32,000 nucleotides of DNA from Candidatus Poseidoniaceae archaeon (GTDB lineage Archaea; Thermoplasmatota; Poseidoniia; Poseidoniales; Poseidoniaceae), in the NCBI GenBank assembly GCA_943789275.1, contig CALSTM010000001.1:300001-332000 (forward strand), in the 5' to 3' direction. Shown piece after piece: positions 1,491-24,067 of this stretch. Position 1 is the stretch's first letter, and the number at the start of each line of letters is the position of its first letter. Position numbers and translations under genes: made by a program. Under the pieces are notes generated by a model. It saw only the letters and a list, made by a program, of their open reading frames with translations. It made no database searches and had not been told where the DNA came from.

Positions 1491-1564
1491 ACAACTCAAC
1501 TTTGTTGAAGAAAGTGAATCACGAACAACGGATGTTTGTTGAAGCAGTAATGGTGAACGACATC

Positions 1565-3337: not shown

Positions 3338-3998
3338 CTTTCCAACCTAACTTGTATCCAAGTAGGTTGAAGGAGCGATGAAGTACAGGTGTAATTGCTA
3401 CCAATGCAACCATTGGCAGGAGAAGTTCTGAATCCGCAAGAATGGACGTGCCGAGGAAGAATTGTCCAGCTAAGAACACCATTATGGCAAACGGAAGGGT
3501 GTCCAAAAGCGGTGCTTTTGAGGAGATATCGCCTTCTCTTTTGAGTCCACGTCGGCGTTTGACAAAAGACCCGCTGCTGTCACCTACCAAGCAGAAAAAT
3601 CCGAGAAAGGTTCCGAGTATAAATGCGGTCATGAGATGACCACCGACATCGAACCAAGTACCTTCAGCACCTTGTAACGGGTGCGTAAATATTCCATTTT
3701 CGCCTATAGCTGTACTCGCTGCAGGAATGTCTCCCATCAGTGCAACAATGAGTACGCTGAGCAAACCAGAAGTCAACGAACCTCCAATCAGTCCATTCCA
3801 TGTTTTGCCGTCTCCAAGAATGCGATTTCCGTCTTTGAGCGTTCGCCCTCCATCAATCGGCCAGGGGCCATAACCGGTCTTGGGCAGCCACTTCCCCCAA
3901 AGCATTGCAAAGGTGTTTGCCAGGAATCCTGGCATGTACAGCCAGAGGGTTAGGATACAGAGTTGTAAAAATTGCATGAAGTTCACCAAGGCTTGCAC
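3324..3998 (-). CDS. carS: CDP-archaeol synthase (CDP-2,3-bis-O-geranylgeranyl-sn-glycerol synthase, CarS/DUF46 family)
   Basis: The motifs PIDGGRTLKDGNRILGDGKTWNGLIGG, GDSSGSFVKRRRG and the C-terminal ITPVLHRSFNLLGYKLGWKDVPY align with my recollection of Archaeoglobus CarS (ILGDGKTWRG, GDLCGSFIKRR, ...LNLKEVPW). The 3998 start is GTG. ATG at 3977, preceded by GGTGA with a 5-nt spacer, is an equally good start. Confidence 0.85.
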   Translation of the reverse strand: MQALVNFMQFLQLCILTLWLYMPGFLANTFAMLWGKWLPKTGYGPWPIDGGRTLKDGNRILGDGKTWNGLIGGSLTSGLLSVLIVALMGDIPAASTAIGENGIFTHPLQGAEGTWFDVGGHLMTAFILGTFLGFFCLVGDSSGSFVKRRRGLKREGDISSKAPLLDTLPFAIMVFLAGQFFLGTSILADSELLLPMVALVAITPVLHRSFNLLGYKLGWKDVPY

Positions 3999-5394: not shown

Positions 5395-5568
5395 GTCTGT
5401 TTGGAGCCCCTGTTAATCCGAGTTTTCAACATCTGTAAACCACCCTCAATGTAGTGCAGCAAGGCATTCATCTGTTGTCCGTTCAGCGGAGTCATTAAAA
5501 GAGGCTCTAAAGTGGCGAAGACGCTTCAGCCTTGCTGCTGTCGCGCAAACACCTTTGAGGGAAAAAAT

Positions 5569-8500
5569 ATGGAACAAATAACTGGCACAAAAACCACTGC
5601 GCCAGCAGCACCGTTGGGATGGCTTATCGCTCCCCTGGCAGTTCTGCTCGCACTCGCAGCGATCAAGCTCGTCGACATTGACTTCGAGCTTACCACAGAC
5701 AACCTGGCACCGATGTTGATCGTCGGCGTCGCTGGCATCTTGGGACTCGTCCCGTCGATGCTGAACCAATCTGAATCCGCTTCTGTTTCCAAGGCCACTC
5801 TTTCCCTCTCCACTTTGGCCGTGGCGCTTATCGGTGCTGAAGCCATTTACCTGAGCGACTACGGAGCATTTTCTGGTCTCTTGTTTGCCTTTGTCACCTT
5901 CGGCGTTCATTTCATGAGCAGCCGTGGGCGACACGAAATTGGAACCATCATTGTGTTTATCGCAATGGGTATCAACGTCGGAATGGTCGTTGCATCCGAT
6001 GCACTCAGTGCTGACTCTGCTCGACTGCTCCCCGATATTTTCAATTTGGCACCAGAGGGTGAACAACCAAGTTTAGTCTCCACACTCAACTTGAGAAACC
6101 AGGCCATCGGTTACCTCTTCTTTTCATCACTGACCATTTTCGCAATCGTCGGTACGCTTGTAGCAACATTGACACGTGGTATCCTTACACCGGTCGGAGA
6201 ATCCGGTTGGTTCAGTTTCTTGAACGACGACAGCAGTTCTGCTTTCAACAAGAACAACCTTCCACTTCAAATCGCATTGGTCGTTTGGGCTTTGGCTCAT
6301 ATTGGCAGCCTTTGGAACTTTGAGACCGCTGGCATGGCCGACAAACTCGCCATCACCACTGCTGCTGACTACCATGGAGTCGTAGGCTACTGGCAAGCTT
6401 TCTTTACTGGAATGGTTGCTTTAATCGTTGCTGGAATGTTCTCGGAACGCTGGCATACCCGTGCCATGACGCTCGGCTCACTGTGGACGCTTTATGTCGT
6501 ATCGACATGGTTTGATGCAGGAATGGTTAGCTTGGATCTACTCGAAGGTAACTGGGGCAGTTTGATTTGGCTCGGCTTGACGTTCTTTATCGGCGTTGCC
6601 ATTTATTCGATTTCAACCCACGAGACGTGGGGTGGATGGGTGAACCGTGACGACCACGAATACTCCGGCGCTCGACAATTTTGGAATCAGCACTGGTCCA
6701 GTGTGATGATTGGTCTCGCTTTCTTCTTCGGTCTGGTCATCCGTACTCAATGGTATGTTGTACCATCCATGAACGCTTTCGGAACTGGAAACTGGGACAT
6801 GACCGGTGGTTCAGACCCGTGGTACATGAAGCGGGTTGTTGATTACATCCTTGCCAACAATGCTCACTTGATATTCGACGCAGACCGATTCTACCCGGTA
6901 GGCGGCATTAACCCTCGACCTCCGATCTTCACATGGTCAATTGCAGTTGTTGCAACACTTCTTGAACCGTTCTTTAACAACGGTGACGCAGTTTGGTGGG
7001 CCATTCTTTCCCTCCCTGCTGTTTACGGAACTTTGACGATTCTTCCTGTTGCTTACATTGCCCGTGAACACATCAACGAAAAGGCTGCAGTTGTGGCTGC
7101 GTGGTTGATTGCGTTCATGCCGGCCCACGTGAGTCACACGACTTGGGCACTGGCTGACCACGATGCTTTCATCATGCTTTTCATCACACTTGGATTCATG
7201 TTCTGGCTCCGTGCAGTGAAGTACGCTGGCAGTGAAAGATTGATGCGTACATCCTCTCCATCACTCCTGTCGTTTATTGCTGCATTCAAGGCCGTAGCAC
7301 AAGAACGTCGAGCCGCCTTCTCAGCAGCAGTCCTTGCTGGTGTGAGTTTCGGTATCGTTTCGCTTGGCTGGAAAGGTTTCGTTGTTGGTCCATCGATTCT
7401 TTTCTTGGCATACGCTGCCCAAGTTGCCCTCAACATGTTCCGCCGCCGTGATTCAACAACACTCAATGTCTTGTTCCTCACCATGCTCGCAGTGAACTTT
7501 TTGATGGCTCTACCGTTTTATGGACATCCACAAATCGACCTCATTTTGAACGGAACTGGTCTTCAACCGTTCTTGTTCATTGCTGTCTTCGCTATCGCCA
7601 TTAGTTTCGTAACCACTGGGTTCCGTGACAAGCCTTGGTTGCTCGTCCTCGGTGTTCTGGCCGGTGCCGGAACCGTATTCTTCATTGTGCTTTGGCTCCT
7701 CAAGGAAGCAAACATTTCCAATGCTTGGGATGTACTTTTCACTGGAAGTGGCTATTTCACCAAGACCAAGATTTTCGGCACGGTTGCTGAAGCAAATGCT
7801 CCAAACCGTGGACAATTGTTCGCACAATTTGGCCCGATTACATTTGTCCTATCATTGATTATGGGAGTTCTATGCCTTTGGTCTGCTCTGCGCGAACGAA
7901 AGCAAACTAAACTCGTGTTCGGTGTTTGGATTATTGCGGCTTCGTTTATGGCTTGGACAGCAGCCCGATTCATGTTCAATGCAACACCTGCCATCGCAGT
8001 TCTCGGTGCTTGGGGAATAGTCTCGCTTTGGAAGTGGGCAAACTGGGAAGGTATGGTCAAAGCTTGGAAGAAGATGGGTATTCGTTCTCCAGAAGACCGT
8101 ATTCGTGGTGCACGAAAGGCACTTTGGCGCACACCTTCGTTCTCTGCCATCATGCTCGTTATGATCATGTTGTTCGGACAACAATTCACCTACGGTTTGG
8201 ATGCTGCTATTCCATCCAGCAACAATGCAGAGGATGACCTCGATGAAACCATTTACAACCTCATTCCAGATGCATTCCGCTGGGAAATCGGTGGGTTTTC
8301 ACTGCTTGACGACAGCAACTACGACGGAAACTGGTACCTCGGTTCCTTTGGTTCCGGTTTCAACGACAACGGTTGGAACTCTGCCTATGAGTGGCTCGCT
8401 GAACAGGACCAAGAGATGGCATATTCGGAACGACCTGCTTTCGTTTCTTGGTGGGACTATGGTTTCCAAGCGCTTGACACCGGTGAACACCCGTCTGTAT

Positions 8501-11500
8501 CTGATAACTTCCAGTCCGGAATCCCCGCTACCGGTAACATGTTGCTGGCTCGCAGTCAAGAAGACCTCGTATCCATGTTCATATTCCAACTCGGTCAAGG
8601 TGACTTGTCTTACAACGAGGCGAACGCTGGTGACCGCGAATTTACTAACGGCTATCAGAACATCGTCGACTCATACCTCACCGCAGAACAGATGGACCTC
8701 TTCGAGAAGATTACTCTTAGTGTTGACATCGATGAAATGGTTTCGTTTACGAAATTGAACAGTTACGAAGTGTACCGAACCAACGATGACACAGTCTTGG
8801 CCAGAGGATACCATCAGACCGATGGTGTGTTCGATGATTCGGCGCAATACTGGAGAGTCTACGACGAAGGTGAACGTCTACTTTGTACCGATTCGCTTTC
8901 CACAACTTGTGTTGACGGTGATTGGTCCTCAGAAGCAGAAGCTGAAAACACCTTTTCCAACAACATTCGAACGGGTAACGATAACATTGATGGCGTGACT
9001 CACTACATTATTGGAGACTACTGGTACACCGCCGATCTTGTCGAAGAATATGGCTCTGTTTCCACACAAATACACCGCCGTAATGCACAATTGGCACTTA
9101 CCGTCCAACTTCTTTCCAACAGCCTCGACTCCGATGACATCACCGACATGTACGATGACCTCATCAACATGGAAGGCTACTACAAAGTCCAAGACTACGA
9201 AGGTGCGCCCGGGGAAACGATTGAACGTGACCACGAAATCCGATACTACGCTATTGATAACCGACTGTACCCCCGTGCAGGACGTTACACTGCTGACATG
9301 AACTACAATCAAGGTCAGCCGATGGGTATCTTTGGAGCGCCAACAATTCTCAGCGGTCAAGACGTTTCAACCTACATGGATGAAGTCTACGAAACCATCC
9401 GTGGTGACTTCCCTGACGAAATGACCCGTGCAGAAGTAGACGAAGCCATTACTCAGGACTTCCTGAACCAACAATCTGGTGCGGATATTGACCCATTGCA
9501 AGTTGAAGATGTTCGAGTTGATCATAACTCGGCTTTCTTTGACACCATGCTGGCCCGTGCGTATGTTGGATACGGTGCCTCAACCCTCGGAGTTGATGCA
9601 GGTTCTTCCAATCCTCAACCAGCCCAGCATTTCGGCCAATCCGGTAGCCCGGGCAGTATTTTGAGTCAAGGCTTACCGTTGCCTGGTGCAATGACGAACC
9701 ACTTTGTTATCGCGAATTGGTACTCTCCTGAGGCAAACTCTTCGGTTACCGCTGAAGAGCAACAAGTAGGTATTTCCTCGACCAACACATTGGTTAAGAT
9801 TCTCAAGTACTACTCAGGTGCTGAAATCTCCGGTCAAGTCACGATGACTGATAACGGTCAGGCTTTGCCAGGTGTTCGCCTGCTCATTGAGCGAGACGCA
9901 TTCTCCGGCGAAGGGACAGAAGATTTGGATCCTGATACCTATTGGGTCCCAATTGGTTACACAGATGCTGATGAAAACGGTCATTGGTCATTCGATGCAC
10001 CTGCCGGTCGCATCCGTGTCAGCGCTTATGCTGGTGATTACAACCCTACCACCGCTCAGGACAACATTCGTTCAGGCGCATTCTCTCAAGGTCTTGGCGA
10101 CATCTTAACCGAAACCAACGAAGACCGACAAATCAACGATATCTCCGCGATTCTCGGTGAAGTGGCTAACATGAGCTGGCTTGGTGAAAACCAACAAAAC
10201 ATCACTGCTGAACAAGCAGACAGCAATGCCCCAGTAAGCGCCGACTTTGACATATCTGTCGAAAGCAGCGGTATCTCTGGTCAAGTGACATGGAGCGGAC
10301 ATGAATCCTTTGATGGCGACGCATTGGTCAGTACAGACTTCGTGCTGCGCAATATTTGGTCGTTGACTGAGAACTACACATTGACAACCACCAACGGTTC
10401 GTTCACCTCGACTGACAGTAGAATTCTACAAGGGTCTGGTGAAGTCACATTTACAGAAAACGGTACCTTTGAAAGCGAAGGTGTTGCGTTTGCAGATGGA
10501 TTTACTGGAACCTTTACCCGTTCGATTGGCGATAAGCGTGTTTACACGAGCAACGGTACATGGGATGGCAAGGGTACACTCGTCGCCTCATGGGTTGCTG
10601 AAGACAATGTCATGGATTGTTTAGACAATGAAACTGCGCCTATGCCAGAAAACTCAACGATTTGTGTACTTGATGCTACAACATCACCTCTCACCTACCT
10701 GTTGGATGGCGGCGTCGAAGCGAACGGTCGTTTGACTTCCGATGGTGTCTCAACACTCGTAACAGAACACGTTGGAGACTCGTTTGAGGCAACAGGTTCT
10801 TTCGAGGGTATTGGAACACTTAACGGCACTGGATTGTTTATCGGAATTGGAGACTTCTCTGGTGAAATGGTTCAGCCAGGTTCTTTCTACCTCACTGGTT
10901 TGATTCCAGGTGTATACAACATGATTGCACAACTGGATAACGGCAAGGAAGTTCTACTCCCTGACCCAGTCAATGTTGGTATCTCGCCTTCGTACGACCT
11001 TGCAATGAGTATGCCCGGTTCAATCTTTGAGGATACCTTGCAGGATTTCTATGAAGAAGCGTTTGCCAATGAGGTTATTGAACTGGTTGATGTGGACATC
11101 GGAATGGATTCATTGGTCGAAATTCACACGGATGAAGACGGAAATTTCTCATACGGACCTCTAGCAACAGGGGAATACTTCTACCGAGTGGACGTCGATA
11201 ACGACGGCTGGTACGAGTTGAATGAAACCATCTTTGCACGTGGAGAATCTGAAAATTTCTCACTTGCCATGGATGTACCGGAAATGTACGATGTTTCATT
11301 GCAGTTAACTTCTCCAGTTGACCCGCAAACTCAGACTCCTTATGCCGATGTGGCAGAACGCACAGTCACGTTTACCAACGACGACCCTCAACTCGCACCG
11401 CTTAACGCTACATCAGATGAGACTGGAATGGTTTACATTGAATTGCCGATGGGTGCTTACACGATTTCTGATGAATCCGGTGATGACTATATCCTGTTTG

Positions 11501-14500
11501 ACTACATTGTCGTCGAGCAAGAAGATGTTGCAATGAGCAGTGCTTATGCAATTGCGACTTGGGTCAATGGAAGCATTCGTGTTGTTGATGGCGGTCTGTT
11601 CGTTGGAGATTACACCTACGAAGATTGGGCTTCTCAGGAAGAGAACTTCAAGTTGGAACAGAGTCAACCTGCTGCAGGACTTGACATCAGTTTCGTTGCC
11701 AACGAACTCGCTTTTTCAGCAACCGTTGAAACGAGTGGAAACTTCAGTGTGCGTTTGCCGAGTGGAAATACCTTCCACATGACAGCACAAAGTTTGGTTT
11801 CACAGATGTCAGCCGGTCAACTGATCGAACTCACTGGCGACGCAGAAAAGAATCTCGGCCTCATGTACCTCGAACCGACTGTATCGACAACGGGTCTTGT
11901 CTTCCTTTACGATAACTCAACTTTGTGGGATTCTTTAGCGCCAGGATATGCAGCACAGGAAGTCATTGCTACCGATTCGACAGGTCTTGAATGGAGAACA
12001 ACCATCGACGATCAAGGTGGATTCATTTTCGACCTCCAAGCAGGAGACTGGGACTTTACTGTCGATGACGCTCTTCTCAACTCAACCACTGTAACCGATT
12101 ACGCTATTCTCACAGACACAGGCGCAGTGCCTACTCTGATTGAATTGTTCGTCAACCCGGAGCATCTTTCCATTGAGCTCAACATCTTCATGGATTCGGG
12201 CGCAGATGGTATCTTTGCAAATGGGACGGGCGTCTCACCCGCATTCTCATTGGTTCCACTGAACAACCATGGTCAACAATACAACTTCACTGCAGACGAT
12301 TATACCTCCGCAGGTAACATCACCGTTGTTCTTGAACCTGGTCTTTACAGCATTGATTTCAATGCAACCGAAGCCACGGATGAAAATGCAACCGACTATT
12401 ACTTGATTGGTGAGTCGTTCTTTGAAACACTGGTTGTTGGAATTGAAGCATACGAAGACTCCGTCTCGTATGCGCTACGCAACGAATTCCTTGTGACAGG
12501 TGTTCTCACGAACTCCTCAGGCGATGGAGTCGAAAAGCAGTTCCTGCTGCGTAATGCAGCAGATGATTTGTGGCACAACATTGCCTCTGATGTGAACGGT
12601 AGTTTTGCCTCTTATGTCCCTGCGGGTGACTGGGTTGCAATTGTTGCACCGTTCTCTGCCTCGAACGACAGTATGGAGACCTACCGTGAAGCCTTCACTG
12701 TAAGTGACGATGCTTCAATGCGAACGGGTCTCAACTTCTCTTCCATCGAAGTGGTTACCGTGAACTTCCAAGTTCAGGAATTGTACACAGACTCGAACAT
12801 GAGTGATGTTCGTATTACGCTTGTCAGTCACGATGGATTTGGAAACGTTACGCTATCGAAATCTGATGTGAACGGTAATGTAAGCGAAACCATCATGCCT
12901 GGTACTTGGAGTATGTTCCTGAACCAAACAGAACCTCAACGCCAGTGGAGCCTCGACACTTTTGATGCCCCATTCTCAACCGAAGATGCTGTTGATGGTG
13001 TTCTCAATCTTGGTATTGTTTCACCAGTTCTCAATGTAGAAATTGGCGGAAAGGTCTTCTGGGACCTTGATGATAACGATCTACCCGGTGGCACTGAAGG
13101 CGTTTCAAACACTACGGTTACAATCCTTGGCCTCAACAACACCGAAGTCGATACCAATGTGTCCACCGATGAATTTGGTGTTTGGTCGTTGTTTGTTCCT
13201 ATTCAAGATGAATACCAAGTGACCGTCTCGAAGGAAGGTTTCAGCACAGAAGTTTACAATGTGTCCAACACCAGCGCTTACCCTGTTTATTCGTCACCTG
13301 AATCGTACGATATCGAGATGACTGCAGGAAACGTTACTGTTTCTGGTAACGTCACTGATATCAACGATGCTGAACGCTTGAACGGGTCCGTTGTGAAGTT
13401 GTTCCCAAGCTCGGGCATGGCTGGTGAACCGATTGTGGTTTCCTCTCAATACGCAAACGAACAATTGACATGGTCGTCGGATATTTCCCCAGGTGAATGG
13501 ATTGTTGTCGTTACCGAAGCAAACGCTGGCGAAAACGGCGGTGGAGTTGCGATCGGTCTTCTCGATGCAAGCATCTCAGATGGTGCTACACTTGATTTGG
13601 AAATGTCGCTTGGAGGTTGGCTTGACCTTACAACAACATGGACCGATATCCAACTTGATGAATACCATGCAGGTTCAGCCAGTAATGGTTCAATCTACAT
13701 GAACGAAACTGCAGTTGTAACGATTGCCATTGGTGAGGAACTCGAATGGGACTTGCCAGTTGGTGCTGATGGGACAATTAGCGTACTCATGCCTGCCTCA
13801 GAAGTCGAAATGGACTCATCGTTTATTACCATCCAGCACGATTTGGAACTGGAAATGGAATACATTGGTGGTGCAGTAACAACCATTGCTGAAGGACGCT
13901 CTCCAGTATCCCTATCCTACACTCGAAGCATCAATTCTGATACATCGATCGCTATGGTTGAAGGCAGCGCTGTGAACGCAACTGTTGACGGTGAATTGGC
14001 TTTCACCGCTGTTGAAGAAGGCGAAGGATACCAACATATTGAATTCGATCTCGAACTTAATTATGAAGGAACAGAAACCGTCCAAGTCTTCGATGTTCTC
14101 GGCCAAATTGTCGTTTCACCGGATGAAGCGGATTGGAAGATCGAGTTCAAGAACGGTTCAACCTATGAGGACGCATACCAAGTTTCCCTTGGAATCGGTA
14201 ACAGCAGCGAAGATACATCGGTTCAGTCTTCTGTAACCGTTGGCATTCGAATCACTGTGGCCAATCAGTCCACTGCTTGGCACCTTGAAGAGCCTCACAC
14301 ACTGAAGGTACGTATGCTTACTGACAACACGCCTTCGAGTGAAATCGCAGTTACGGTTCAAGTGCCACAAATCTATGACTTTGAAACTTCTGATGAAGAC
14401 GAGTCAATAGGAATTGGTGCAGGTGGTAACAGTATGTTTGGATTTGTTCTCGAAAACACCGGTAATGGTGATGATTCCTATACCGTTGAACTCTCGGATA

Positions 14501-15141: not shown

Positions 15142-15154
15142 TTTTAGACAACCC

Positions 15155-15161
15155 ATTATAT
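15155..15161 (+). promoter_or_regulatory. Candidate TATA box for the subtilase gene
   Basis: ATTATAT is centred about 41 nt upstream of ATG 15199. That would leave a short leader containing GGGGG (15187-15191, 7 nt before the ATG). The aglB stop is followed directly by TTTT (15142-15145), an archaeal-style oligo-T tract. This rests on sequence pattern only. Confidence 0.25.
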
Positions 15162-15198
15162 CCAGAGTTCGGAATGAACTCTCATAGGGGGCGTAGCA

Positions 15199-16419
15199 AT
15201 GGAAGGACTTGACGGCGTTGAATTTCTCCCTGAACCGGATGATTCACGAATCCTTTCGGTGATTGATTCATCTGCTGTGGGCTTTCAAGACAATTGGAGG
15301 TCAGAGGTTACCGGTTGGGCTCCAATGCAAGCGGTGCCAATTCCTCGCATGCGTCGCCGTAAGATACTCGTAACCAACGGTATTGTATTTTCAGTATTGG
15401 TTATTGTTATGCTCTACGTGTGGAACTCCGGGTTACTTTTCCTTGAAATACCACCACCCAAATCGGAATGGGCGGTGGAACAATCACAATTTGATGACTT
15501 ATCAGAAATGGGATTAACAGGGGAAGGTGTTCGAGTTTGTATGGTTGATACCGGTATTGATTTGAGTAATCCAGCTTTTTCGAATCTCCAAGTTACGTTC
15601 AAAGACATGATTGGGAACTCCAATGCTCCAGTCGATTACGGTTTTATTGCTCACGGAACGCTCATGGCCGGTATACTCGTTTCAAACAACCACCAAATTG
15701 GTGTGGCTCCAGGAGTTGAACTCGCCATGGTGGCTGCCTTGGGCGCTGATGAAGATGATCTGAACAGCGGTTCGGAGGATACTGTGGCACGATCAATTCG
15801 TTGGTGTCAAGACGAGTATCAAGCAGACATTATCTCCCTCTCGCTTGGAGGCGAACAAAACGTCGAAATGCATACAGAAGGGAGCAGCGTTTCTGCAGTC
15901 CGAAGGGCAGTTGACTCTGGCATCTTTGTAGTGGCTGCTGCGGGAAACGACGGTGGTAGTGCCGATGACGGTTTGGTGTCTGTGCCGGGTAATGTGCCAC
16001 GAGTCATCACAGTCGGGGCATCAACCGAGTCGCAGCAAGTTTGGGCAAACTCATCAGCCGGCTCTCAAACACTCCCTAACGACGACTTGCGTCAACATCC
16101 ACACATGAAGCCGGAAGTCATTGCCCCGGGTCAAAACATCATCAGTACTGGTATTGGAGATACATGGTTCTCGAGCAGCGGAACATCCGATTCTACGGTA
16201 TTTGTTACCGGCGCTCTCTCACTTCTCCTTGAAGCGTTTCCCGAATACAAGGCATCATCAAATTCAGACGGCACATGCATTGATGCGGTCAAAAATGCGC
16301 TGATGAATTCTGCTCTCAAATACGATGATTCGTCAATCCATGATGACCGATGGGGCTACGGTCAACTGCAGGCTATGGCGTGGTATTCTTCACTTGAATC
16401 GCAATCACCTACGTGCTGA
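15199..16419 (+). CDS. Membrane-anchored subtilisin-like serine protease (peptidase S8)
   Basis: The catalytic triad is in canonical order and context: VCMVDTGID (D codon 15547-15549), HGTLMAGIL (H codon 15652-15654) and SGTSDSTVFVTGALSLL (S codon 16186-16188). The oxyanion Asn lies in VAAAGNDGG. A single N-terminal TM (ILVTNGIVFSVLVIVMLYVW) follows an RMRRRK patch. Confidence 0.9.
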   Translation: MEGLDGVEFLPEPDDSRILSVIDSSAVGFQDNWRSEVTGWAPMQAVPIPRMRRRKILVTNGIVFSVLVIVMLYVWNSGLLFLEIPPPKSEWAVEQSQFDDLSEMGLTGEGVRVCMVDTGIDLSNPAFSNLQVTFKDMIGNSNAPVDYGFIAHGTLMAGILVSNNHQIGVAPGVELAMVAALGADEDDLNSGSEDTVARSIRWCQDEYQADIISLSLGGEQNVEMHTEGSSVSAVRRAVDSGIFVVAAAGNDGGSADDGLVSVPGNVPRVITVGASTESQQVWANSSAGSQTLPNDDLRQHPHMKPEVIAPGQNIISTGIGDTWFSSSGTSDSTVFVTGALSLLLEAFPEYKASSNSDGTCIDAVKNALMNSALKYDDSSIHDDRWGYGQLQAMAWYSSLESQSPTC

Positions 16420-16474
16420 TCTTGGATGCAAAAGCACGACACAACGGCATTGGCGGAGCCATTGCTCTTTGAAA

Positions 16475-16522
16475 ATATGATACTCTTAGGTGGGATATGA
16501 TATTTTAGTATGGGATATGATG
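16475..16522 (+). repeat. Three 20-bp-phased copies of ATATGAT(A/G) (two extend to TGGGATATGAT) in the AT-rich region upstream of the beta-helix gene
   Basis: atatgata occurs at 16475-16482 and 16495-16502, and atatgatg at 16515-16522. The longer repeat tgggatatgat occurs at 16491-16501 and 16511-21. Related atgatac copies lie at 16520-16526 and 16539-16545. The last phased copy is about 31-38 nt upstream of ATG 16553. Confidence 0.5.
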
Positions 16523-16552
16523 ATACTTTCGTTGTTGAATGATACATTAAAA

Positions 16553-19500
16553 ATGTCGACAGAGGCGCAGTATTATATTCGTGATAAGAATAGCAACGGA
16601 ACAGAGGCGTCTATTTTGAAGAACACTACATCTCACAAAAGCATATCGTTGGTTGCACTCCTTTTGCTCTCAACATTAACCGGTTTGATCGCTATTCCCA
16701 CTGCATCTGCCGTAAACGAAACGAAGTCAGGAATAATTACCGGAACTGAAACTTGGACCGGTACGATGAATCTTAACGGGGACGTCGTCGTTGCTGAAGG
16801 TGCTCAACTCATCGTCAATGCGGGAACCGTAATCAACATTCCTTACGGATATTACATCGACGTCGAGGGTGCAATTTGTATCGGTGACAGTGCATGCGGT
16901 GCAAGTTCAGGTTCATCTGGTAATCAGGCTCGCTTTGTCTGGTCTACACCTACTGACTATACTGCTCAAGGACGGTGTTACTCGAACAACACCAACAACC
17001 CAAACTACAACGCTGATACTGCTTGCGGCTCTGGAATGATTATTCGTTCAACCATTGACCAAGCAATCACTTCAATCAAGTTCGCTCATTTTGAGAATGC
17101 ATACGGCCACCCCTTTGAGACAAATCAAGTAAGTGGGAAACAATACGGCGCTCTTGTTTTCGATGGCTCGACGACAAACGCACAAGGACTCTCTTTTCAG
17201 AACATCAACACCTCCAATATTATGGCCATAGACCTTGCAGCACCAACAATTTCTGATTCTACCTTTACCTTGGGTGTTGACGGTAATGGATTCGATGCCG
17301 CAGCTGTCCGTGCTTACGGAGCAGGTGCTGGAATATTGGCAACAATGGAAGTATCGAATTCAGTGTTCACCGGGAACACGGAAGCGGAATGTGGAAACGA
17401 CGGTCGAAGTCTGGTCTACATTGAGAGTTCATATGTGGACTTTTCGAACCTTGATATTAAGGATAATTCGTATGGATTCTTTATGAAAGAAAGTTCCGGC
17501 TCCATTACAGACAGTACGATCAACGTCAAATGCAGCGGCATTGATACAAACTCACACAAGGTCACCGGCACGATTAACCACACCTTGACAATCAGCGATA
17601 ACACCATTACGACCGCAGATGGTTCCGGAATTACTGCTTACGACGGTGCGATTGTCGTTGCAGAACGTAATACGATATCGGGTGCAGCGGAGGGTTCCGG
17701 ATTTGGTATCCGTTCATCCACCGTTACGGCCAACAGCAACATTATTGGTCCAATTGGCGGTTGGAATGGTCTATGGATCTACGGTACATCCGATGTTGTT
17801 GCTGAAAACAATACCATCCAAGATACGGCAAAAGAAGCTGTTCTCATCGGAGAATACCACTATCTTGACCAAGGATGGAATGTTCCAACACCTACTGCAG
17901 CACGACTTTATTTGGCGAACAATCAGATTTCAAACAACACCGGTACATGCAACTCTCAAATGTACGGCGGTGACTTCCCATGTCCTGCAATTCATGTGTT
18001 CATGTCCTCAGCAACGCTCTACGATAACACAGTAACGAACAACGGCGGAGATGGAATGCGCATCAAGGCAAGTATCGTGAACGCTCAACGAAACACAATA
18101 GAAGTTTCAGGCTTTGCCGCAAACGTCTCGCTGTTCGACGATAACTACGGAAACAAGTACGGCTCAATCGCTTACTTCTCCGAAAACACATACACCAACG
18201 CCACTCAGGTCTACAACATTACCGAATCGCGTGTCACTGTACAGTCGGAATTCATCCCAGACGCAGGCGGTAACGAACTGTATCCAGTTCAATTGCGCTG
18301 GCTCGGCCCAGAATGCCCATACGTCCTCGACGAGTGTTTGCAGGTTCCTCCCACCGCCATCATGCCACCAGCGTTCATGCCATTGGCTCTTGAGGTCGTT
18401 GAAAACTCGACCGTATTCTCCTATGCGGACTTACAGAACTTCGATTCATCGAAGATTCATGTTCAGAACCAAAACTCTGCATGGGGCAGTCAAGTTCGAG
18501 AAGGTGAACTTGTCCGATATCAGGTGAAGGCTCAGAACAGCAATGTGGTGGACGCAACCGTCATCATACGTGATGCAACTGGATTGCCGCTCTACTCCCT
18601 CACAACCGATGCCTTTGGTTTCACGCCAGAAGTTTCACTTCCATCCGACTTTTTGCTTGACCGTAACTGGAACCATAATGTTGGTGAGACCAACGTTCAA
18701 ATCCCTGGTGAATTAGATGCACAAGGAAATCCAGTCTTTATTGATGAAAACTCATGTGCTGATGGATACGATAACGACGGCGACACCAAGGTCGACTCGG
18801 ATGACGCTGACTGTACCGGTGGCCGTGAACTTCCGTTCTACACCGTTGAAGCCTACAAGTTCGGTAAGGGTCAGAAAGATTTCAACTTCGTCCTCAGCGG
18901 CGGAATTGATGATGTCATCAATCTTGTGAACATGAAGCCGAGTGTTACCGTAACTCAAAATGATGGATTCTCGTTTGCTACAACTGCTTCGCTAAGCGGT
19001 AGTTCTTGGGATGGAATCTCAGGTCCATACGCTTTGGACCAAATTGCCTATGAGAACCAATTTGGTCTCATCAAGCGTGTAGAAGTTCAACCACCTGGTT
19101 CGACGGATTGGTATTCAGCAATCGATACCTCGGGAGCGAACGGTATGATCTCCAAATCGGTGCATCCGTTCAAGACATGGTCCTTTGAATGGGACTTGTC
19201 CGCTCACCCTGAAGGTGAAGGTGATGTCACATTCCGAGTTCGCTCTTACGACGGTCTGGATTACTCACCGGTTGAAGTTCGAAAGTACAAGTTGAACTTA
19301 GTTGCTCCAACAATGCTCGTCAATTCGCCTGCAGACGGTTCGTCTCATACCACCGGTAAAGTGACTTTTGCCGGTACTGCAAGCGACCCTTACACCGGTA
19401 CATGGGGCAGTGACATTCAATCGATATGGTTTGACATCAACGGTCCAAACGGCTACACCGCGAACTTCGAGGTTTCCGGCTCCACTGCATGGGCTTACGA

Positions 19501-21004
19501 TTGGATTTTCCAAGAATTGCAAACCGGGCAGTATGATTTCCGTATTTGGGCGTCTGACAGTGACTTCTGCAAGACGAAATCCAGTTGGGTTGATTGCGTA
19601 CATGAAACACGTAGCATCAACATCAACACCGACAACGCAATTCCATTCGTACAGCTTAGTGAACCGTTGAACTCTGATATTATCCGAGCGAGTGAAACGC
19701 AATTGATTCAAGGTGTCGCACTTGACAACGATGGATTGGTTACTCGCGTCGAGATATCAATCTTTGATCTTGCCAGCGGTGTGACGATTAACAACGGTCC
19801 AAACCCGGTTACGAACTTTGCACCAAACGGTGCTTGGTACACCACCTGGGACACTTCCGACCTCATTCACGACCAACAGTATGAACTGGTCATCAAGGCA
19901 TGGGACGGTAAGGACTTCTCGAACGAGGAGCGTATACGAATTACAATCGACAATCCAACCGATGCCGACAATCTGGTACCAGAGTTCAACTCGACAGGAT
20001 GGGCCAGTACAATCACCTTGTTCTGCGATTCAAACCCAACCAAACTCGACCGCTGTAACGGTGGAATCAGTATTGACCTCATGGAACACTTCTCCGATGC
20101 AGACGGTGCCGATGATGGTAAGACGAACGGATTGAGTTTCGATATTTTCGATGACCCTACCAACTTAGACGATGACTTCTACGGCGATTACCTCACCCTT
20201 TCAGACACGGGTGTTGTTCGCTATGATCCAGCGTTTGTGACTGGACTCTCGAACGAAGTATCCGAATGGTCCTTAGTCGGTCTCATGTTTGTAGCTCGTG
20301 ATGCTTATGATTCAGTTGCCTATTCCTACAAAGTCAATGTGGTCGTTGTCGAAGTGTCCTTCAGTGTTGTTCGAGACAACACTGGACTTTTGGGCCCAGA
20401 TTCACCAGCATACTTCAGTGGCCAAGGCTTGCCCAACAGTCTGGTTGAAGCGCGATTTGACAGCCTCAAGGGTGTTCGAATTAACCAAACACGGGTCAAT
20501 GCAGACGCAACATGGTCGATGGAAATTTCCAGCAGTCAACTTTCAGGAATGGAAGGTACGAGTAATATTATCTTTGAAATGGATGATCAAGTGTACACCG
20601 TTCCTGGTGAGAACAGTGACGCAGTATTCAAACTCAGCGTCAGTGATGGCTCTGAATCGAGTTCGAATCTCATGATGATTGTTGCTGCAGCGATTGGAGT
20701 CATCGTGTTGCTTGGTGCGGGAATGTTCTTCTTCCAAGTGGAGTATGATGACATGGATGAACTCACTGACATTGCTCAAGCGGAACAAGAGGTTGCATCA
20801 GCAGATCCTTACGCTTGGGCCAAGGCTCGTCAAGAACCAGTCAGTATCCCATCCACTGCTGTTGCTGAAACACCGGTTGCTGCTCAGCCAGTCGCGGCTG
20901 CTGTTCAACATGCAGCTCCACAATCCTCTCAACATCCCGGGTGGCTATGGGATTCTGAATCCAACAGTTGGGTTCCAGATCCAAACTTCACTCCAGAACA
21001 GTGA
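16553..21004 (+). CDS. Large secreted surface protein: right-handed beta-helix (PbH1/NosD-like) region, Cys-flanked DNDGD motif, Ig-like domains, C-terminal TM and a Pro/Ala-rich cytoplasmic tail
   Basis: The ORF is open from GTG 16490, but ATG 16553 lies downstream of the repeat/promoter-like region. The signal peptide is SISLVALLLLSTLTGLIAIPTASA-VNE. Beta-helix repeats include NTISGAAEGSGFGIRSSTVTANSNIIG...NNTIQDTAKEAVLIGE and NNQISNNTG...DNTVTNNGGDGMRI. CADGYDNDGDTKVDSDDADC lies at 18755-18814. Big-like units include SPADGSSHTTGKVTFAGTASDP. The TM is LMMIVAAAIGVIVLLGAGMFFF. Confidence 0.85.
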   Translation: MSTEAQYYIRDKNSNGTEASILKNTTSHKSISLVALLLLSTLTGLIAIPTASAVNETKSGIITGTETWTGTMNLNGDVVVAEGAQLIVNAGTVINIPYGYYIDVEGAICIGDSACGASSGSSGNQARFVWSTPTDYTAQGRCYSNNTNNPNYNADTACGSGMIIRSTIDQAITSIKFAHFENAYGHPFETNQVSGKQYGALVFDGSTTNAQGLSFQNINTSNIMAIDLAAPTISDSTFTLGVDGNGFDAAAVRAYGAGAGILATMEVSNSVFTGNTEAECGNDGRSLVYIESSYVDFSNLDIKDNSYGFFMKESSGSITDSTINVKCSGIDTNSHKVTGTINHTLTISDNTITTADGSGITAYDGAIVVAERNTISGAAEGSGFGIRSSTVTANSNIIGPIGGWNGLWIYGTSDVVAENNTIQDTAKEAVLIGEYHYLDQGWNVPTPTAARLYLANNQISNNTGTCNSQMYGGDFPCPAIHVFMSSATLYDNTVTNNGGDGMRIKASIVNAQRNTIEVSGFAANVSLFDDNYGNKYGSIAYFSENTYTNATQVYNITESRVTVQSEFIPDAGGNELYPVQLRWLGPECPYVLDECLQVPPTAIMPPAFMPLALEVVENSTVFSYADLQNFDSSKIHVQNQNSAWGSQVREGELVRYQVKAQNSNVVDATVIIRDATGLPLYSLTTDAFGFTPEVSLPSDFLLDRNWNHNVGETNVQIPGELDAQGNPVFIDENSCADGYDNDGDTKVDSDDADCTGGRELPFYTVEAYKFGKGQKDFNFVLSGGIDDVINLVNMKPSVTVTQNDGFSFATTASLSGSSWDGISGPYALDQIAYENQFGLIKRVEVQPPGSTDWYSAIDTSGANGMISKSVHPFKTWSFEWDLSAHPEGEGDVTFRVRSYDGLDYSPVEVRKYKLNLVAPTMLVNSPADGSSHTTGKVTFAGTASDPYTGTWGSDIQSIWFDINGPNGYTANFEVSGSTAWAYDWIFQELQTGQYDFRIWASDSDFCKTKSSWVDCVHETRSININTDNAIPFVQLSEPLNSDIIRASETQLIQGVALDNDGLVTRVEISIFDLASGVTINNGPNPVTNFAPNGAWYTTWDTSDLIHDQQYELVIKAWDGKDFSNEERIRITIDNPTDADNLVPEFNSTGWASTITLFCDSNPTKLDRCNGGISIDLMEHFSDADGADDGKTNGLSFDIFDDPTNLDDDFYGDYLTLSDTGVVRYDPAFVTGLSNEVSEWSLVGLMFVARDAYDSVAYSYKVNVVVVEVSFSVVRDNTGLLGPDSPAYFSGQGLPNSLVEARFDSLKGVRINQTRVNADATWSMEISSSQLSGMEGTSNIIFEMDDQVYTVPGENSDAVFKLSVSDGSESSSNLMMIVAAAIGVIVLLGAGMFFFQVEYDDMDELTDIAQAEQEVASADPYAWAKARQEPVSIPSTAVAETPVAAQPVAAAVQHAAPQSSQHPGWLWDSESNSWVPDPNFTPEQ

Positions 21005-21063
21005 TGCACCTTCTGCTCACATGGGCGGAAGTGTTGAAGAGTAGAAAAGTGCGAGGTGAGAAT

Positions 21064-23589
21064 ATGTCTGTTCAACCAAAGCCTGGGGTGCAAGAGCGAA
21101 TACTTCTGCATCTTCTTGATTATTCAGATTTCAAGAACAGCGTAGAAGTCCCCTTTGCACTCTCGCAGATGGGTATTGCGAACGCTGTAGCGATTGCCCG
21201 CTCCAATGTGCCTCGAGCGATTGCTGGACTCAAAGATCAGGGCTTGCTGATTGAACGGCAAGCACACGTCACAGGTGTTTCTCGTAAGCGCAAGGCGTAT
21301 TTTCTCACCGACCCTGGCATGAACGTTTCAGAAGATACGTGGGAGCGTCTGCGAAACTTCCAATTGCGCAGTATCATGGACGATGGGATGATTATCAATT
21401 CGACACTGGGAGAAATCAATGACCATCTCGAATTTTCTATGCGACCTGTCGACATTATTCGATACATGGACGATAACTGTGTTCTCGATACCCGTTCACT
21501 TTCTGCAGATTTAGTCGAGCGGGATTTGTCGAAACATGTGGAAAAACAACTGGTGACATCGCTTGGTGACTTACCACGGCTACGGCATTTCTACGGCCGT
21601 GAAAAAGAACTCGATAACATGGCAAATTTGATTGATGCTCGTGCAACAACACTTCTGATACCCGGTATTGCGGGCATTGGAAAAACAACGATTGCTTCAA
21701 AATTAATCGAGCGTTTCATGCACCGACGTAATCTGTTGTATCATCGTTGCCAAGATTGGGAAGGTTCCCGTTCGTTCTTTGAATCGATTGCTGATTGGTT
21801 GGCCAACATCGGTGATTCAACATTCGCTGACTACTTGGCAGCAACCCCTGTCCCACAACCCGCTGATGCAGCACGGCTTCTGGTAGATTCCCTCGAAGGT
21901 ACACCAAGTTTGATTGTCATCGATGACTTTCACAAAGTCGCCGATACCACGCTGCATCAGACCTTTCAAGCAATGTCGCTCGCATTGCTGGGCAGCGAAG
22001 AGGAAATCGGGCTTGTGATTTTCTCTCGTTCATTCAAACCTGTGGTTCCTACAAAAGACGCTGAAGGTCGAATTGCGAGTCTCGTTCTTCCTCTTGATGG
22101 TCTGGATTCGGATGCTGGGCGTCAACTCTTGAGCAGTTTTGAGAACTTGGGTGATGAACAATGGCTTCACATTCACGGATTATCAAGAGGTCACCCTCTG
22201 GTTCTTGAGTTGATCAACCGCGGTGCTTCTGCTGGTGCCTTCCATGAAACCCTTGAGAATTATGTTACCGTTGAAATCTTTTCGAAATTGAGCGGGGAAC
22301 AGAAGCGTGTGTTGTCTGCTCTTGCCATATACCGTGAGCCTGTCAATTTGTCTGCCCTTGCTGAGCAAGGACTCGATACAGATGAACTTGATTCTCTTGT
22401 TGAACAAGGTCTTGCTCGGCAAGGCGATGTGGATTTCTACGATGTCCACGATTTGATTCGAGAATTTTTAATTCGAAGCCTCGAAGAAAGTACAAAGCAA
22501 GAGTTTCACGCCAAGTGTTGCACTTGGTACGAGAAACAAACTTCTGCACCTGCTGTTTTGATTGAACATATATTCCATCTTATCCGTTCTGGAAAAGATG
22601 ATGCGGCGGCTGTACTCATTGCCGAGCAGGGAAGAGCACTGATTGCACAAGGGCACATGGAGTTACTCGGGTTGATGGAAGGTTTGACTTTTGATTCACT
22701 GGATGTAACAATTCATATGCGTGTTCGACAATTACACGGCGAATTGCTCGTTCTTCTTGGAAGGTTTTCGGAAGCCGAAGCAGTCTTTGTCTCAATCGCT
22801 AAACTGGATCCAAATTCGAAAGCCATTCGGTTGAGAGCGGAAGTACATTCAGCGCTTGCTGATCTTGCCCTGAAACAAGGTGATGCTGACAAGGCATTGG
22901 GTATGCACCGTGAAGCTTTAGAGAAATTCATTGAATGCGGTGATGCCAAAGGCGCTGCTCGTTCATACAATAACATGGGTTATTTGCTCCGGCGTAAAAA
23001 CGATTTTACCAAGGCCCTGGAAGCATATGGGGAAGTTGAAAAAATCCTCGATGAATCCGACGGTACAGAATTGGTTGGGACTCAGTTGACTCTTGCTCGT
23101 GCTTTCTTAGAACTTGATGAAATTGACCGTGCCCGAGACCATGCCATCCAAGCGTTCGAAGTGTCCGATGACGGTACCGATGTACTTCTTCACGCACGTG
23201 CACAGGCTGTTCTTGGCCGGTACTATGCCAAGGTTGGCGATGCTGACGTGGCATCTCACCACTATACCACTGCACTTGAGACGATGAGTGTCGCAGGTGA
23301 TTTACTTTCTCTGGTCGAGATAACTATTCTTCTCGGGGAAGTCTTGCAAGATGCTGGAAGAGCAGAGGACGCAATGGAACATTACCGTGAGGCTCTTGTC
23401 ATAGCCGAAGCCAACGATTTGCGAATGCAGATTGGAGAGTTGCTTTCTCGACTTGGCGGTGTGGCACCAGACAAGCGCCGTCGAATGGAATACCTCCAAA
23501 GAGCGCTTGCAGTATTCAGGGAACTGGGTGCAAAATCAAGAATGCGGGATGTTCAGGCACAGGTTCATGCAGCCGTTATGGGCCGCTGA
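21064..23589 (+). CDS. STAND NTPase (NB-ARC/AP-ATPase-like) with an N-terminal winged HTH and C-terminal TPR repeats; probable signal-sensing transcription regulator
   Basis: The wHTH is FALSQMGIANAVAIARSNVPRAIAGLKDQGLLIERQ...KRKAYFLTDPG. The P-loop is LLIPGIAGIGKTTIA (about 21661-21690). Walker B is SLIVIDDFHKV. GLVIFSRS is RNBS-B-like and SRGHPLVLELI is GLPL-like. TPR-like helical pairs include SYNNMGYLLRRKNDFTKALEAYGEV and AEDAMEHYREALVIAE. The 20968 start is TTG. I prefer ATG 21064 with AGGTGA 6-11 nt upstream. ATG 21004, which overlaps the previous stop as TGATG, is an alternative. Confidence 0.85.
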   Translation: MSVQPKPGVQERILLHLLDYSDFKNSVEVPFALSQMGIANAVAIARSNVPRAIAGLKDQGLLIERQAHVTGVSRKRKAYFLTDPGMNVSEDTWERLRNFQLRSIMDDGMIINSTLGEINDHLEFSMRPVDIIRYMDDNCVLDTRSLSADLVERDLSKHVEKQLVTSLGDLPRLRHFYGREKELDNMANLIDARATTLLIPGIAGIGKTTIASKLIERFMHRRNLLYHRCQDWEGSRSFFESIADWLANIGDSTFADYLAATPVPQPADAARLLVDSLEGTPSLIVIDDFHKVADTTLHQTFQAMSLALLGSEEEIGLVIFSRSFKPVVPTKDAEGRIASLVLPLDGLDSDAGRQLLSSFENLGDEQWLHIHGLSRGHPLVLELINRGASAGAFHETLENYVTVEIFSKLSGEQKRVLSALAIYREPVNLSALAEQGLDTDELDSLVEQGLARQGDVDFYDVHDLIREFLIRSLEESTKQEFHAKCCTWYEKQTSAPAVLIEHIFHLIRSGKDDAAAVLIAEQGRALIAQGHMELLGLMEGLTFDSLDVTIHMRVRQLHGELLVLLGRFSEAEAVFVSIAKLDPNSKAIRLRAEVHSALADLALKQGDADKALGMHREALEKFIECGDAKGAARSYNNMGYLLRRKNDFTKALEAYGEVEKILDESDGTELVGTQLTLARAFLELDEIDRARDHAIQAFEVSDDGTDVLLHARAQAVLGRYYAKVGDADVASHHYTTALETMSVAGDLLSLVEITILLGEVLQDAGRAEDAMEHYREALVIAEANDLRMQIGELLSRLGGVAPDKRRRMEYLQRALAVFRELGAKSRMRDVQAQVHAAVMGR

Positions 23590-23590
23590 A

Positions 23591-24067
23591 TTAATTGTAA
23601 GATTGCGGCCTGTCGTATTGCAATGAAGTTACACCGTCTGAGTAAACAATCCATACCGAAGTGACACCGGCAAGGACGACCGTCCCTTCGTGGGAACCTG
23701 CACCAGTTCCAGATAACGACACACTGGTATCAAGCGTCCCACCTTCGTGAATTAAATTAATCGAAGTATCTGTGAGTTCAAGCGTAATTCTCGATTCGTC
23801 TGCTTCGGTTAATCTCCAAGTCACTTTCTCCGCATATTCAACTGACCCCATTCGACTCGCCTCATCGGCTCGTTCAACAGCTGCAGCCAAGTCATCAAGG
23901 TTGGATTGAATTGCATTCTCGTTCCAACGTTCACGGGTTGCAGTTTCGATTTGATACGCCCAAATACTGAATGTAGTAAGCAACAAGACCCCTAAAAGAA
24001 AGGTAAAAATATAGCCGAGTTCAGTCGCAGCAGCGTGTTCATCTCTACGTAATTGTTTACTGTTCAA
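23591..24067 (-). CDS. Small class-III-signal (type IV pilin-like) protein, third gene of the pilin-like operon
   Basis: The N-terminus is MNSKQLRRDEHA-AATELGYIFTFLLGVLLLTTFSIWAY. Its leader motif is shared with the two upstream genes. The only start that keeps the hydrophobic helix is TTG at 24067, which overlaps the upstream TGA as TTGA. The first internal Met lies after the helix. Confidence 0.65.
   Translation of the reverse strand: MNSKQLRRDEHAAATELGYIFTFLLGVLLLTTFSIWAYQIETATRERWNENAIQSNLDDLAAAVERADEASRMGSVEYAEKVTWRLTEADESRITLELTDTSINLIHEGGTLDTSVSLSGTGAGSHEGTVVLAGVTSVWIVYSDGVTSLQYDRPQSYN

Follow-up and report, generated by a model that had tools for sequence, protein, structure and literature searches.

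Marine Group II archaea belong to the most abundant planktonic archaea and are uncultured; to our knowledge, their cell envelope is uncharacterised. The window analysed here (the whole stretch of 32,000 nt) stems from an archaeon of the family Poseidoniaceae (Marine Group II a, MGIIa) and carries a block of four genes, herein referred to as A to D, that encode an oligosaccharyltransferase (OST), a subtilase, a giant surface protein and a regulator. Do these genes constitute a dedicated assembly system for surface glycoproteins, in which glycosylation, proteolysis and display are coupled, as a preliminary description of this DNA had proposed, or is their neighbourhood of a looser kind? At a probability of about 55 %, we favour the latter, that is, a conserved envelope gene neighbourhood of the order Poseidoniales in which a giant AglB that serves as the general enzyme, a membrane-held subtilase, a surface protein with its own promoter and, on the same transcript as the latter, a STAND regulator would lie side by side without forming a self-contained, dedicated system. 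The four genes are the following:

5569..15141, + strand: gene A, giant AglB/STT3 oligosaccharyltransferase, 3,190 aa (assigned by Pfam, alignment to 3WAJ, transmembrane (TM) scan, and orthologues)
15199..16419, + strand: gene B, membrane-tethered subtilase of family S8, 406 aa (Pfam, orthologue alignment)
16616..21004, + strand: gene C, surface protein, 1,462 aa (Pfam; start by comparison of relatives)
21064..23589, + strand: gene D, cytoplasmic regulator composed of a winged helix-turn-helix (wHTH), a STAND NTPase and TPR, 841 aa (Pfam, NCBIfam, orthologues)

The domain contents that had been described for these products recur in the Pfam matches, with STT3 and CarboxypepD_reg in A, a full-length Peptidase_S8 in B, Beta_helix and Big_7 in C, and HTH, AAA_16/nSTAND and TPR in D. 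AglB, S8 proteases and STAND regulators are each components of known families. For comparison, 15 genome loci were used, namely metagenome-assembled genomes (MAGs) of Poseidoniaceae/Poseidoniales found by scanning a genome collection with the subtilase as query (51–91 % S8 identity), together with further, metagenomic lineages that were reached via divergent AglB representatives (L018, L019, L024/25, and L026).

The case against a dedicated system begins with gene A. In the annotation table of SIMO Bin 19-2, a published MAG of Marine Group II b (MGIIb), AglB (COG1287/K07151) appears once, and this single copy argues that the enzyme is the cell's sole recognisable OST, predicted to be a general one that serves all N-glycoproteins and not one dedicated to its neighbours. 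The distribution of N-glycosylation sequons (N-X-S/T), judged against composition-preserving shuffles, points in the same direction. Gene C had been characterised as a sequon-rich, adhesin-like protein; in the window, however, it has 15–16 sequons where 18.5 are expected, and enrichment is lacking in ten out of ten lineages (p > 0.1). In AglB itself, by contrast, the extracellular extension holds 46 sequons in the window where 20.5 are expected and is enriched 2–3-fold in nine of ten lineages. Hence, within the block, it is the OST that is open to heavy glycosylation and not the supposed adhesin.

Gene A matches STT3 (PF02516) at 9.9e-15, with 55.4 bits clearly above the curated cut-off of 24.5, and CarboxypepD_reg at 3.9e-16, while the NCBIfam model TIGR04154 (archaeo_STT3) is hit at 8.4e-49, yet under its subfamily cut-off. 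The closest relative in the PDB is AglB-L of Archaeoglobus fulgidus (3WAJ), to which SDPWY (D47), ADHD (D161/H163) and SWWDYG can all be aligned; as the metal-site residues and SWWDYG are retained, the protein should be a catalytically intact AglB and, as predicted, an active OST. Its order comprises an additional N-terminal membrane domain of ~375 aa, the STT3 core with WWDYG, an extracellular beta-sandwich extension of ~2,000 aa, a C-terminal TM helix (aa 3160–3178) and a basic tail ending in F. In the window, the extra N-terminal domain corresponds to 5569–6700 and the extension to 8600–15141. An AlphaFold2 model of the first 400 aa (pLDDT 72.8) displays about ten helices, for which neither a fold match in the PDB (best E 0.5, TM <0.25) nor a Pfam match was found. 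With NCBIfam, no CTERM-sorting model of the archaeosortase/PGF-CTERM type matched A or C at E ≤ 0.01; A terminates in a plain TM helix with a basic tail and C in a TM helix followed by a tail of ~90 aa. The novel reading of gene A that survives the evidence is that of a doubly anchored, presumably self-glycosylated "enzyme plus glycocalyx" protein, of a type that appears to be common to Thermoplasmatota.

Indeed, AglBs of 2,100–3,200 aa are the rule in this phylum: 246 clusters at 50 % identity were found with E < 1e-30, and most of the full-length ones are giant. The carriers include members labelled as Marine Group III (MGIII), Thermoplasmata, and Methanomethylophilaceae (P0138–P0222). Among 13 giant AglBs examined from outside Poseidoniales, WWDYG is intact in all 13, the extension is sequon-enriched 1.5–4-fold, and a C-terminal TM helix with basic tail was detected in 12. 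Extension and C-terminal anchor are thus common to the AglBs of 2,100–2,800 aa in other Thermoplasmatota, whereas the N-terminal domain of ~375 aa is particular to the Poseidoniales enzyme and missing from its giant counterparts. A search of the open-access literature retrieved no published description of giant AglBs or of this gene block. Within 10 kb of the giant AglB at three Thermoplasmatota loci outside Poseidoniales, no homologue of the S8 gene, C or D was present and the neighbours are unrelated; one contig with an MGIII-like AglB (L027) is broken up by frameshifts and uninformative on neighbours. The architecture as such may explain how largely wall-less archaea build a glycocalyx.

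Do the four genes at least form one transcription unit? All of them are found in the open reading frame (ORF) listing as consecutive plus-strand frames (5512/5569–15141, 15199–16419, 16490/16553–21004, and 20968/21064–23589), just as had been described. The start of A is ATG 5569, which lies behind a conserved, Shine-Dalgarno-like GAGGGA and is supported by orthologues. That of C is neither 16490 nor 16553 but TTG 16616, because stop codons intervene upstream in relatives (between the 20-nt element at 16562–16581, see below, and the C start in L001, L004, L011, and L014), because the element lies in another frame in the L010 clade, and because TTG 16616, or the ATG that distant relatives have at the aligned position, is the sole start common to all lineages; a Shine-Dalgarno-like GAGG/GGTG site precedes it. 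It follows that the gap between B and C measures 196 nt and that C has 1,462 aa instead of the about 1,480 aa given before. For D, a conserved Shine-Dalgarno-like GAGGTGA precedes ATG 21064, and all orthologues align from residue 1 of the protein starting there; the alternative junction, a TGATG overlap at 21001–21006, is therefore not used. The previously noted gaps of 57, 133 (or 70) and 59 nt are all present in the sequence along with the overlap, yet the middle one is superseded and the overlap idle. In any case, tight spacing of co-directional genes is ordinary for a compact archaeal genome and not by itself above chance.

The intergenic regions hold the following elements:

5495..5562, + strand: upstream region of aglB, with TATA-like TTAAAA (5495–5500), hairpin CAGC-CTTGCT-GCTG (5527–5540) and GAGGGA (5557–5562)
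15155..15161, + strand: TATA-like ATTATAT upstream of B, 38 nt before the start of B and identical in the window's clade
16478..16546, + strand: TGATAY direct-repeat array, with repeats starting at 16478, 16498, 16521, and 16540 and pairs spaced 19–20 nt
16562..16581, + strand: invariant 20-nt element GAGGCGCAGTATTATATTCG, which contains the TATA-like TATTATAT (16571–16578); GAGG site at 16604–16607
21005..21063, + strand: spacer of 59 nt between C and D, with GAGGTGA before the ATG and no TATA-like box

The gap between B and C is the most telling of these. The element GAGGCGCAGTATTATATTCG is identical in the nine lineages aligned and in all Poseidoniaceae loci, and it is non-coding in several of them; judging from its position ~42 nt before the start, it is a candidate BRE/TATA core promoter of C (BRE, B recognition element). 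In front of it, the motif GATAY occurs six times on the plus strand within the 200 nt after B, as compared to 0.41 expected (P = 5e-6; down to 7e-9 per locus). Over-representation of the repeats, confined to the plus strand, extends to 17 of 19 loci, among them the MGIIb-like L018 and L026, whereas L019 and L024 are without them. Pairs of the form GATAY-N14-GATAY are found 38 times in 565 kb, 27 of these matches being located upstream of C, and the distance from the proximal repeat to the invariant element is fixed at 23 nt in MGIIa. The repeats are thus candidate upstream activating sites of C, and together with the invariant element they argue for a promoter of its own for this gene.

The other junctions are less uniform. 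The aglB leader is shared by the Poseidoniaceae and, in part, by the order as a whole, with the TATA-like TTAAAA 65–70 nt upstream of A kept order-wide; its hairpin of 4–5 bp, which was read by eye, is present in L026 as the compensatory variant CAGTC...GACTG, and nothing in the leader reached the Rfam gathering score. We infer that this region is the promoter and leader of aglB. Upstream of B, similar boxes (TCTATAT, AATATAT) lie 35–45 nt before the gene in L019 and L024 and are not evident in L007/L010 or L018, so that B probably, if weakly, has a TATA-like promoter element of its own. Between C and D, the spacer shrinks to 20–26 nt in L007, L010, L011, and L015 and to 22–34 nt in L024 and L019, which is too short for a separate promoter and thus points to D being probably co-transcribed with C. 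Judged by sequence, a single operon running from A through D was rejected in view of the invariant element and repeats in the B–C spacer, a run of seven T after B in L019, and the TATA-like boxes before A and B. Summed up, the block would have at least two, and probably three, promoters.

Conserved gene order does not set the four genes apart either. They occur adjacent, co-directional and in the order A-B-C-D in all 22 related loci that are long enough to show it, namely the 15 genome loci, L018, L019, L024/25, L026, L028, and genes 305–308 of SIMO Bin 19-2, whose best eggNOG matches bear locus tags that follow one another in the original MG-II genome. Because the P0132 cluster is labelled Thalassarchaeaceae (MGIIb), the block spans both Poseidoniales families. 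The flanking genes, used as a control, are equally syntenic, with CARDB-carS-purD upstream and, on the downstream side, genes for an MBL hydrolase and a giant thrombospondin-repeat protein; the loci differ in their flanks only by an inversion of carS and by three pilin-like genes that follow D in some of them and are missing in others. Since the adjacency of purD and aglB is as old as that of aglB and the S8 gene, the four genes cannot be told apart from their flanks by synteny at this depth. The preliminary description had named synteny in relatives as a check: the four genes do co-occur in every sufficiently long locus of MGIIa and MGIIb, but this does not rise above the background of the flanking genes and does not recur beside the giant AglBs of other Thermoplasmatota.

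What, then, are the three neighbours of AglB? Gene B matches the entire Peptidase_S8 profile (PF00082, positions 1–288; 4.5e-36, 125 bits), and its catalytic Asp, His, Asn and Ser (VDTG, HGT, AAAGN, and SGTSD) are invariant in 11 orthologues over MGIIa and MGIIb. A cytoplasmic N-terminus of 55 aa is followed by one TM helix (aa 56–74, directly after RMRRRK), a linker of ~10 aa, and the catalytic domain. The single helix behind RMRRRK makes an N-in/C-out topology plausible, and with it the outward-facing, tethered protease that had been claimed. The catalytic domain begins ~10–15 residues past the membrane (the alignment to subtilisin BPN' starts at residue 91); an I9-type propeptide is absent, and residues 1–107 have no Pfam match. 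The cytoplasmic N-terminus (15199–15365) carries the motif L..[VL]E[YFL][LM]PEPxD...D....G, which is conserved in MGIIa and MGIIb, matches nothing in Pfam, and suggests a likewise conserved cytoplasmic partner. The best NCBIfam model on B is the mycosin of the type VII secretion system (T7SS; TIGR03921, 2.4e-34); an assignment as such was rejected, as 119 bits fall far behind the equivalog cut-off of 278.75 and ESX genes are absent from the window.

Gene C (Beta_helix 6.6e-15, Big_7 4e-9) is laid out as a Sec signal peptide (...PTASA|VNET), a right-handed beta-helix, an acidic Ca-binding-like repeat, Big_7 Ig domains, a TM anchor (~20678–20734) and the cytoplasmic tail of ~90 aa. The tail ends in a motif (from 20936; HPGWLWD-x6-WVPDP in the window) that occurs in every MGIIa and MGIIb orthologue as HPGW[LIK]WD-x6-W[VA]xDP, and contains another, DPYAWAK (from 20804), that is found in most orthologues and is absent in exactly L019 and L024, the two that also lack the GATAY repeats. 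Both motifs are seen on no other protein of the compared loci, and the tail has no Pfam match. A protein search with the last 70 aa of C returned 24 short fragments, all of C itself; the one that was checked is a split C gene (L028). A conserved cleavage motif near the C-terminal anchors of the two giant proteins, another check that had been proposed, was searched for in A and C, and merely acidic, non-specific stretches came to light.

Gene D is the best-conserved protein of the block (69–98 % identity within MGIIa, 52–57 % to MGIIb), belongs to arCOG03047, and is single-copy in SIMO Bin 19-2. Its TPR region matches TPR_12 over three stretches (7e-21, 74.6 bits), with TPR_MalT at 42.5 just under the cut-off of 45; the NTPase is matched by AAA_16 (2.9e-9, 38.1 vs. 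a cut-off of 32.6), AAA_22 (27.7 vs. 27) and nSTAND6, and its Walker A motif GIAGIGKT is invariant among orthologues. The earlier label NB-ARC did not hold, for no such model is among the 23 Pfam matches at E ≤ 0.01. At the N-terminus, the wHTH is recognised by HTH_Crp_2 at 21.5–23 bits, below the cut-off of 27, and still more weakly by PadR, MarR and HTH_36; it is nearly invariant order-wide. In NCBIfam, MalT (7.6e-11) and AfsR are the matches, with all scores far under the equivalog cut-offs. D is therefore best described as a predicted transcription factor of MalT/AfsR-like wHTH-STAND-TPR build. The TPR fold often binds short peptides, and AfsR-type activators bind direct repeats upstream of promoters. 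A covariation of the D wHTH with the GATAY repeats was looked for among the loci and not found: the domain is essentially unchanged in L019 and L024 despite the loss of the repeats, which means that regulator and sites do not covary.

Several known systems invite comparison. Like AglB-L of Archaeoglobus fulgidus (3WAJ), gene A, single-copy in the genome, has a multi-TM STT3 core with aligned SDPWY/ADHD residues and WWDYG, but it reaches 3,190 aa instead of the usual about 600–1,000 aa owing to the N-terminal domain and the sequon-enriched extension, and has a second TM anchor. B resembles mycosin (MycP) of the T7SS in being a membrane-tethered S8 protease with an outward catalytic domain and in having a gene that lies next to those of a large envelope machinery, but differs in its anchor (N-terminal in B, C-terminal in mycosin), the absence of T7SS genes, the archaeal host and the score below cut-off. 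D shares with MalT and AfsR (SARP-NB-ARC-TPR) a P-loop STAND NTPase followed by a TPR sensor and, with AfsR, the order of DNA-binding, NTPase and TPR parts as well as direct repeats upstream of a neighbouring promoter; its DNA-binding domain, however, is Crp/MarR/PadR-like (below the Pfam cut-off) and neither of the SARP nor of the LuxR type, no NB-ARC is matched, and the promoter context is archaeal BRE/TATA. For the pairing of C and B, the nearest likeness is tetrabrachion of Staphylothermus marinus, a very large anchored surface glycoprotein with the surface-bound subtilase STABLE, which was proposed to process tetrabrachion or to feed the cell (PMC5744192). This likeness is one by description and the association in our case hypothetical; moreover, C is a beta-helix/Ig protein and not a coiled-coil stalk, and B is tethered to the membrane and not bound to a stalk.

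Taken together, the favoured reading would assign the following roles. A would act as general N-oligosaccharyltransferase whose beta-sandwich extension is itself a sequon-rich glycoprotein, held by a second membrane anchor; B would be an active subtilase ~10 residues from the outer membrane face, with membrane-proximal or surface proteins, or peptides that have been captured, as its probable substrates; C would be a secreted, C-terminally anchored beta-helix/Ig surface protein under its own promoter behind the GATAY repeats as candidate activator sites; and D would be a MalT/AfsR-like transcription factor, most likely on the transcript of C. A physical or regulatory link among the four products can be inferred at most. 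Three observations weigh against such a loose neighbourhood. The short cytoplasmic motifs of B and C are kept order-wide and D has TPRs of the peptide-binding type, which hints at an interaction of B, C and D. Adjacency and orientation of A-B-C-D, furthermore, outlast rearrangements directly beside the block (carS inverted, pilin-like genes present or absent), which could reflect selection on the block. Finally, in a published metatranscriptome, aglB (+2.05 log2) and C (+1.9) rise together in samples in which the genus is active (O1-active samples), while D (gene 308) stays at −0.05; in this data set, all four genes have similar low coverage. These expression values are too weak to decide between the readings.

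Of the alternatives, the dedicated assembly system that had originally been put forward assumes that AglB glycosylates, that B matures or sheds the anchored A and/or C, and that D regulates their display. It draws on the order-wide conservation of adjacency and orientation, on an active site of B that lies near the membrane without a propeptide, as in processing subtilases such as mycosin, on the C-terminal anchors with acidic juxtamembrane segments that A and C have in common, and on the joint increase of aglB and C; STABLE, which may cleave the precursor of tetrabrachion, would even provide a precedent (PMC5744192). Nevertheless, we consider it unlikely: a single-copy AglB is a general enzyme, purD and carS are just as syntenic, C is sequon-enriched in no lineage, C at least, and probably A and B, would have promoters of their own, a common conserved motif near the two anchors was not found, giant AglBs exist elsewhere without these partners, and in the one data set the expression of D did not follow that of C. 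What stands of the coupled glycosylation-proteolysis-display idea is the synteny in relatives, while its "dedicated", "sequon-rich" and "operon-like" parts have given way to the single-copy AglB, the equal synteny of the flanks, the sequon counts and the candidate promoter of C. A circuit without A fares no better in our estimation and appears rather improbable, too. Here, B, C and D would sense across the envelope: B sheds or clips C, the TPRs of D read the C tail (DPYAWAK ... HPGWxWD-x6-WVPDP), and activated D binds the GATAY repeats and drives the C–D promoter in a positive feedback. Such a circuit would account for C tail and B N-terminal motifs that are far better conserved than their surroundings in both MGIIa and MGIIb, for the wHTH-NTPase-TPR order that D has in common with AfsR-type activators, for GATAY pairs that occur almost nowhere but upstream of C and sit at a fixed distance from the core promoter, and for a C–D spacing that implies co-transcription. 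It is at odds with the essentially unchanged wHTH of D in L019 and L024, where the repeats are missing, and with the flat expression of D beside that of C; the motifs could, moreover, equally bind other cytoplasmic partners.

At the opposite end, the genes might have no functional link whatsoever, B being one of several nutritional S8 exopeptidases, C an unrelated adhesin and D a global regulator, with their adjacency a matter of inherited gene order. The literature on MGII does treat S8 subtilisins as extracellular nutritional peptidases with 1–4 copies per MAG (PMC6864105; PMC9723583), about seven arCOG00702 (S8) genes are found in SIMO Bin 19-2, the flanking housekeeping genes are equally syntenic, and the wHTH of D is invariant whatever the local cis-elements. 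A catalytic domain ~10 residues off the membrane combined with a conserved cytoplasmic motif, however, would be an odd design for bulk digestion, the C–D spacing suggests a common transcript, and B stays beside aglB across about 40 % sequence identity, so that we give this explanation, like the other two, little credence as compared to a conserved neighbourhood of envelope genes. Whichever applies, the locus offers concrete parts of the MGII envelope, namely an OST of ~3,200 aa that is doubly anchored and sequon-enriched, a membrane-held subtilase, a beta-helix protein with a sharply conserved promoter, and a near-invariant STAND regulator. If B, C and D are indeed coupled, archaea would have a novel type of circuit for surface sensing or surface maturation; if not, the block illustrates that order-level synteny without a control for flanking genes over-calls "systems" in collinear genomes.

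The genes around the block include the following:

3324–3998, − strand: carS, CDP-archaeol synthase, inverted relative to L018, L019, L024, L026, and SIMO Bin 19-2, its place between the CARDB gene and purD being kept
23591–27356, − strand: three pilin-like genes of 158 aa, 736 aa (DUF7289) and 361 aa (DUF7289/archaeal type IV Pilin_N)
28456–>32000, + strand: ORF of a giant repeat protein of at least 1,181 aa that leaves the window, with signal peptide and DTDGD thrombospondin-type-3-like repeats

The pilin-like genes follow D in MGIIa loci and in L026 and are absent from L019, L024, and SIMO Bin 19-2, where the MBL gene adjoins D; they are an insertion or deletion at the block's edge. The last 3.7 kb of the window, which might be taken for gene-free, are not, as the giant ORF runs off its end; in MGIIb loci, the homologue of this ORF is a gene of ~1,900 aa located just after that for MBL. 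RNA genes were not detected in the window (Rfam at gathering thresholds; ARAGORN), and PADLOC assigned no defence system to it, with weak TPR and subtilase matches only. Upstream of the block, 228–3337 encodes two predicted envelope proteins, one of 420 aa with three TM helices, for which no family match was obtained, and a CARDB protein of 590 aa with signal/anchor, C-terminal TM helix and acidic tail. Overall, the window encodes an unusual number of surface proteins.

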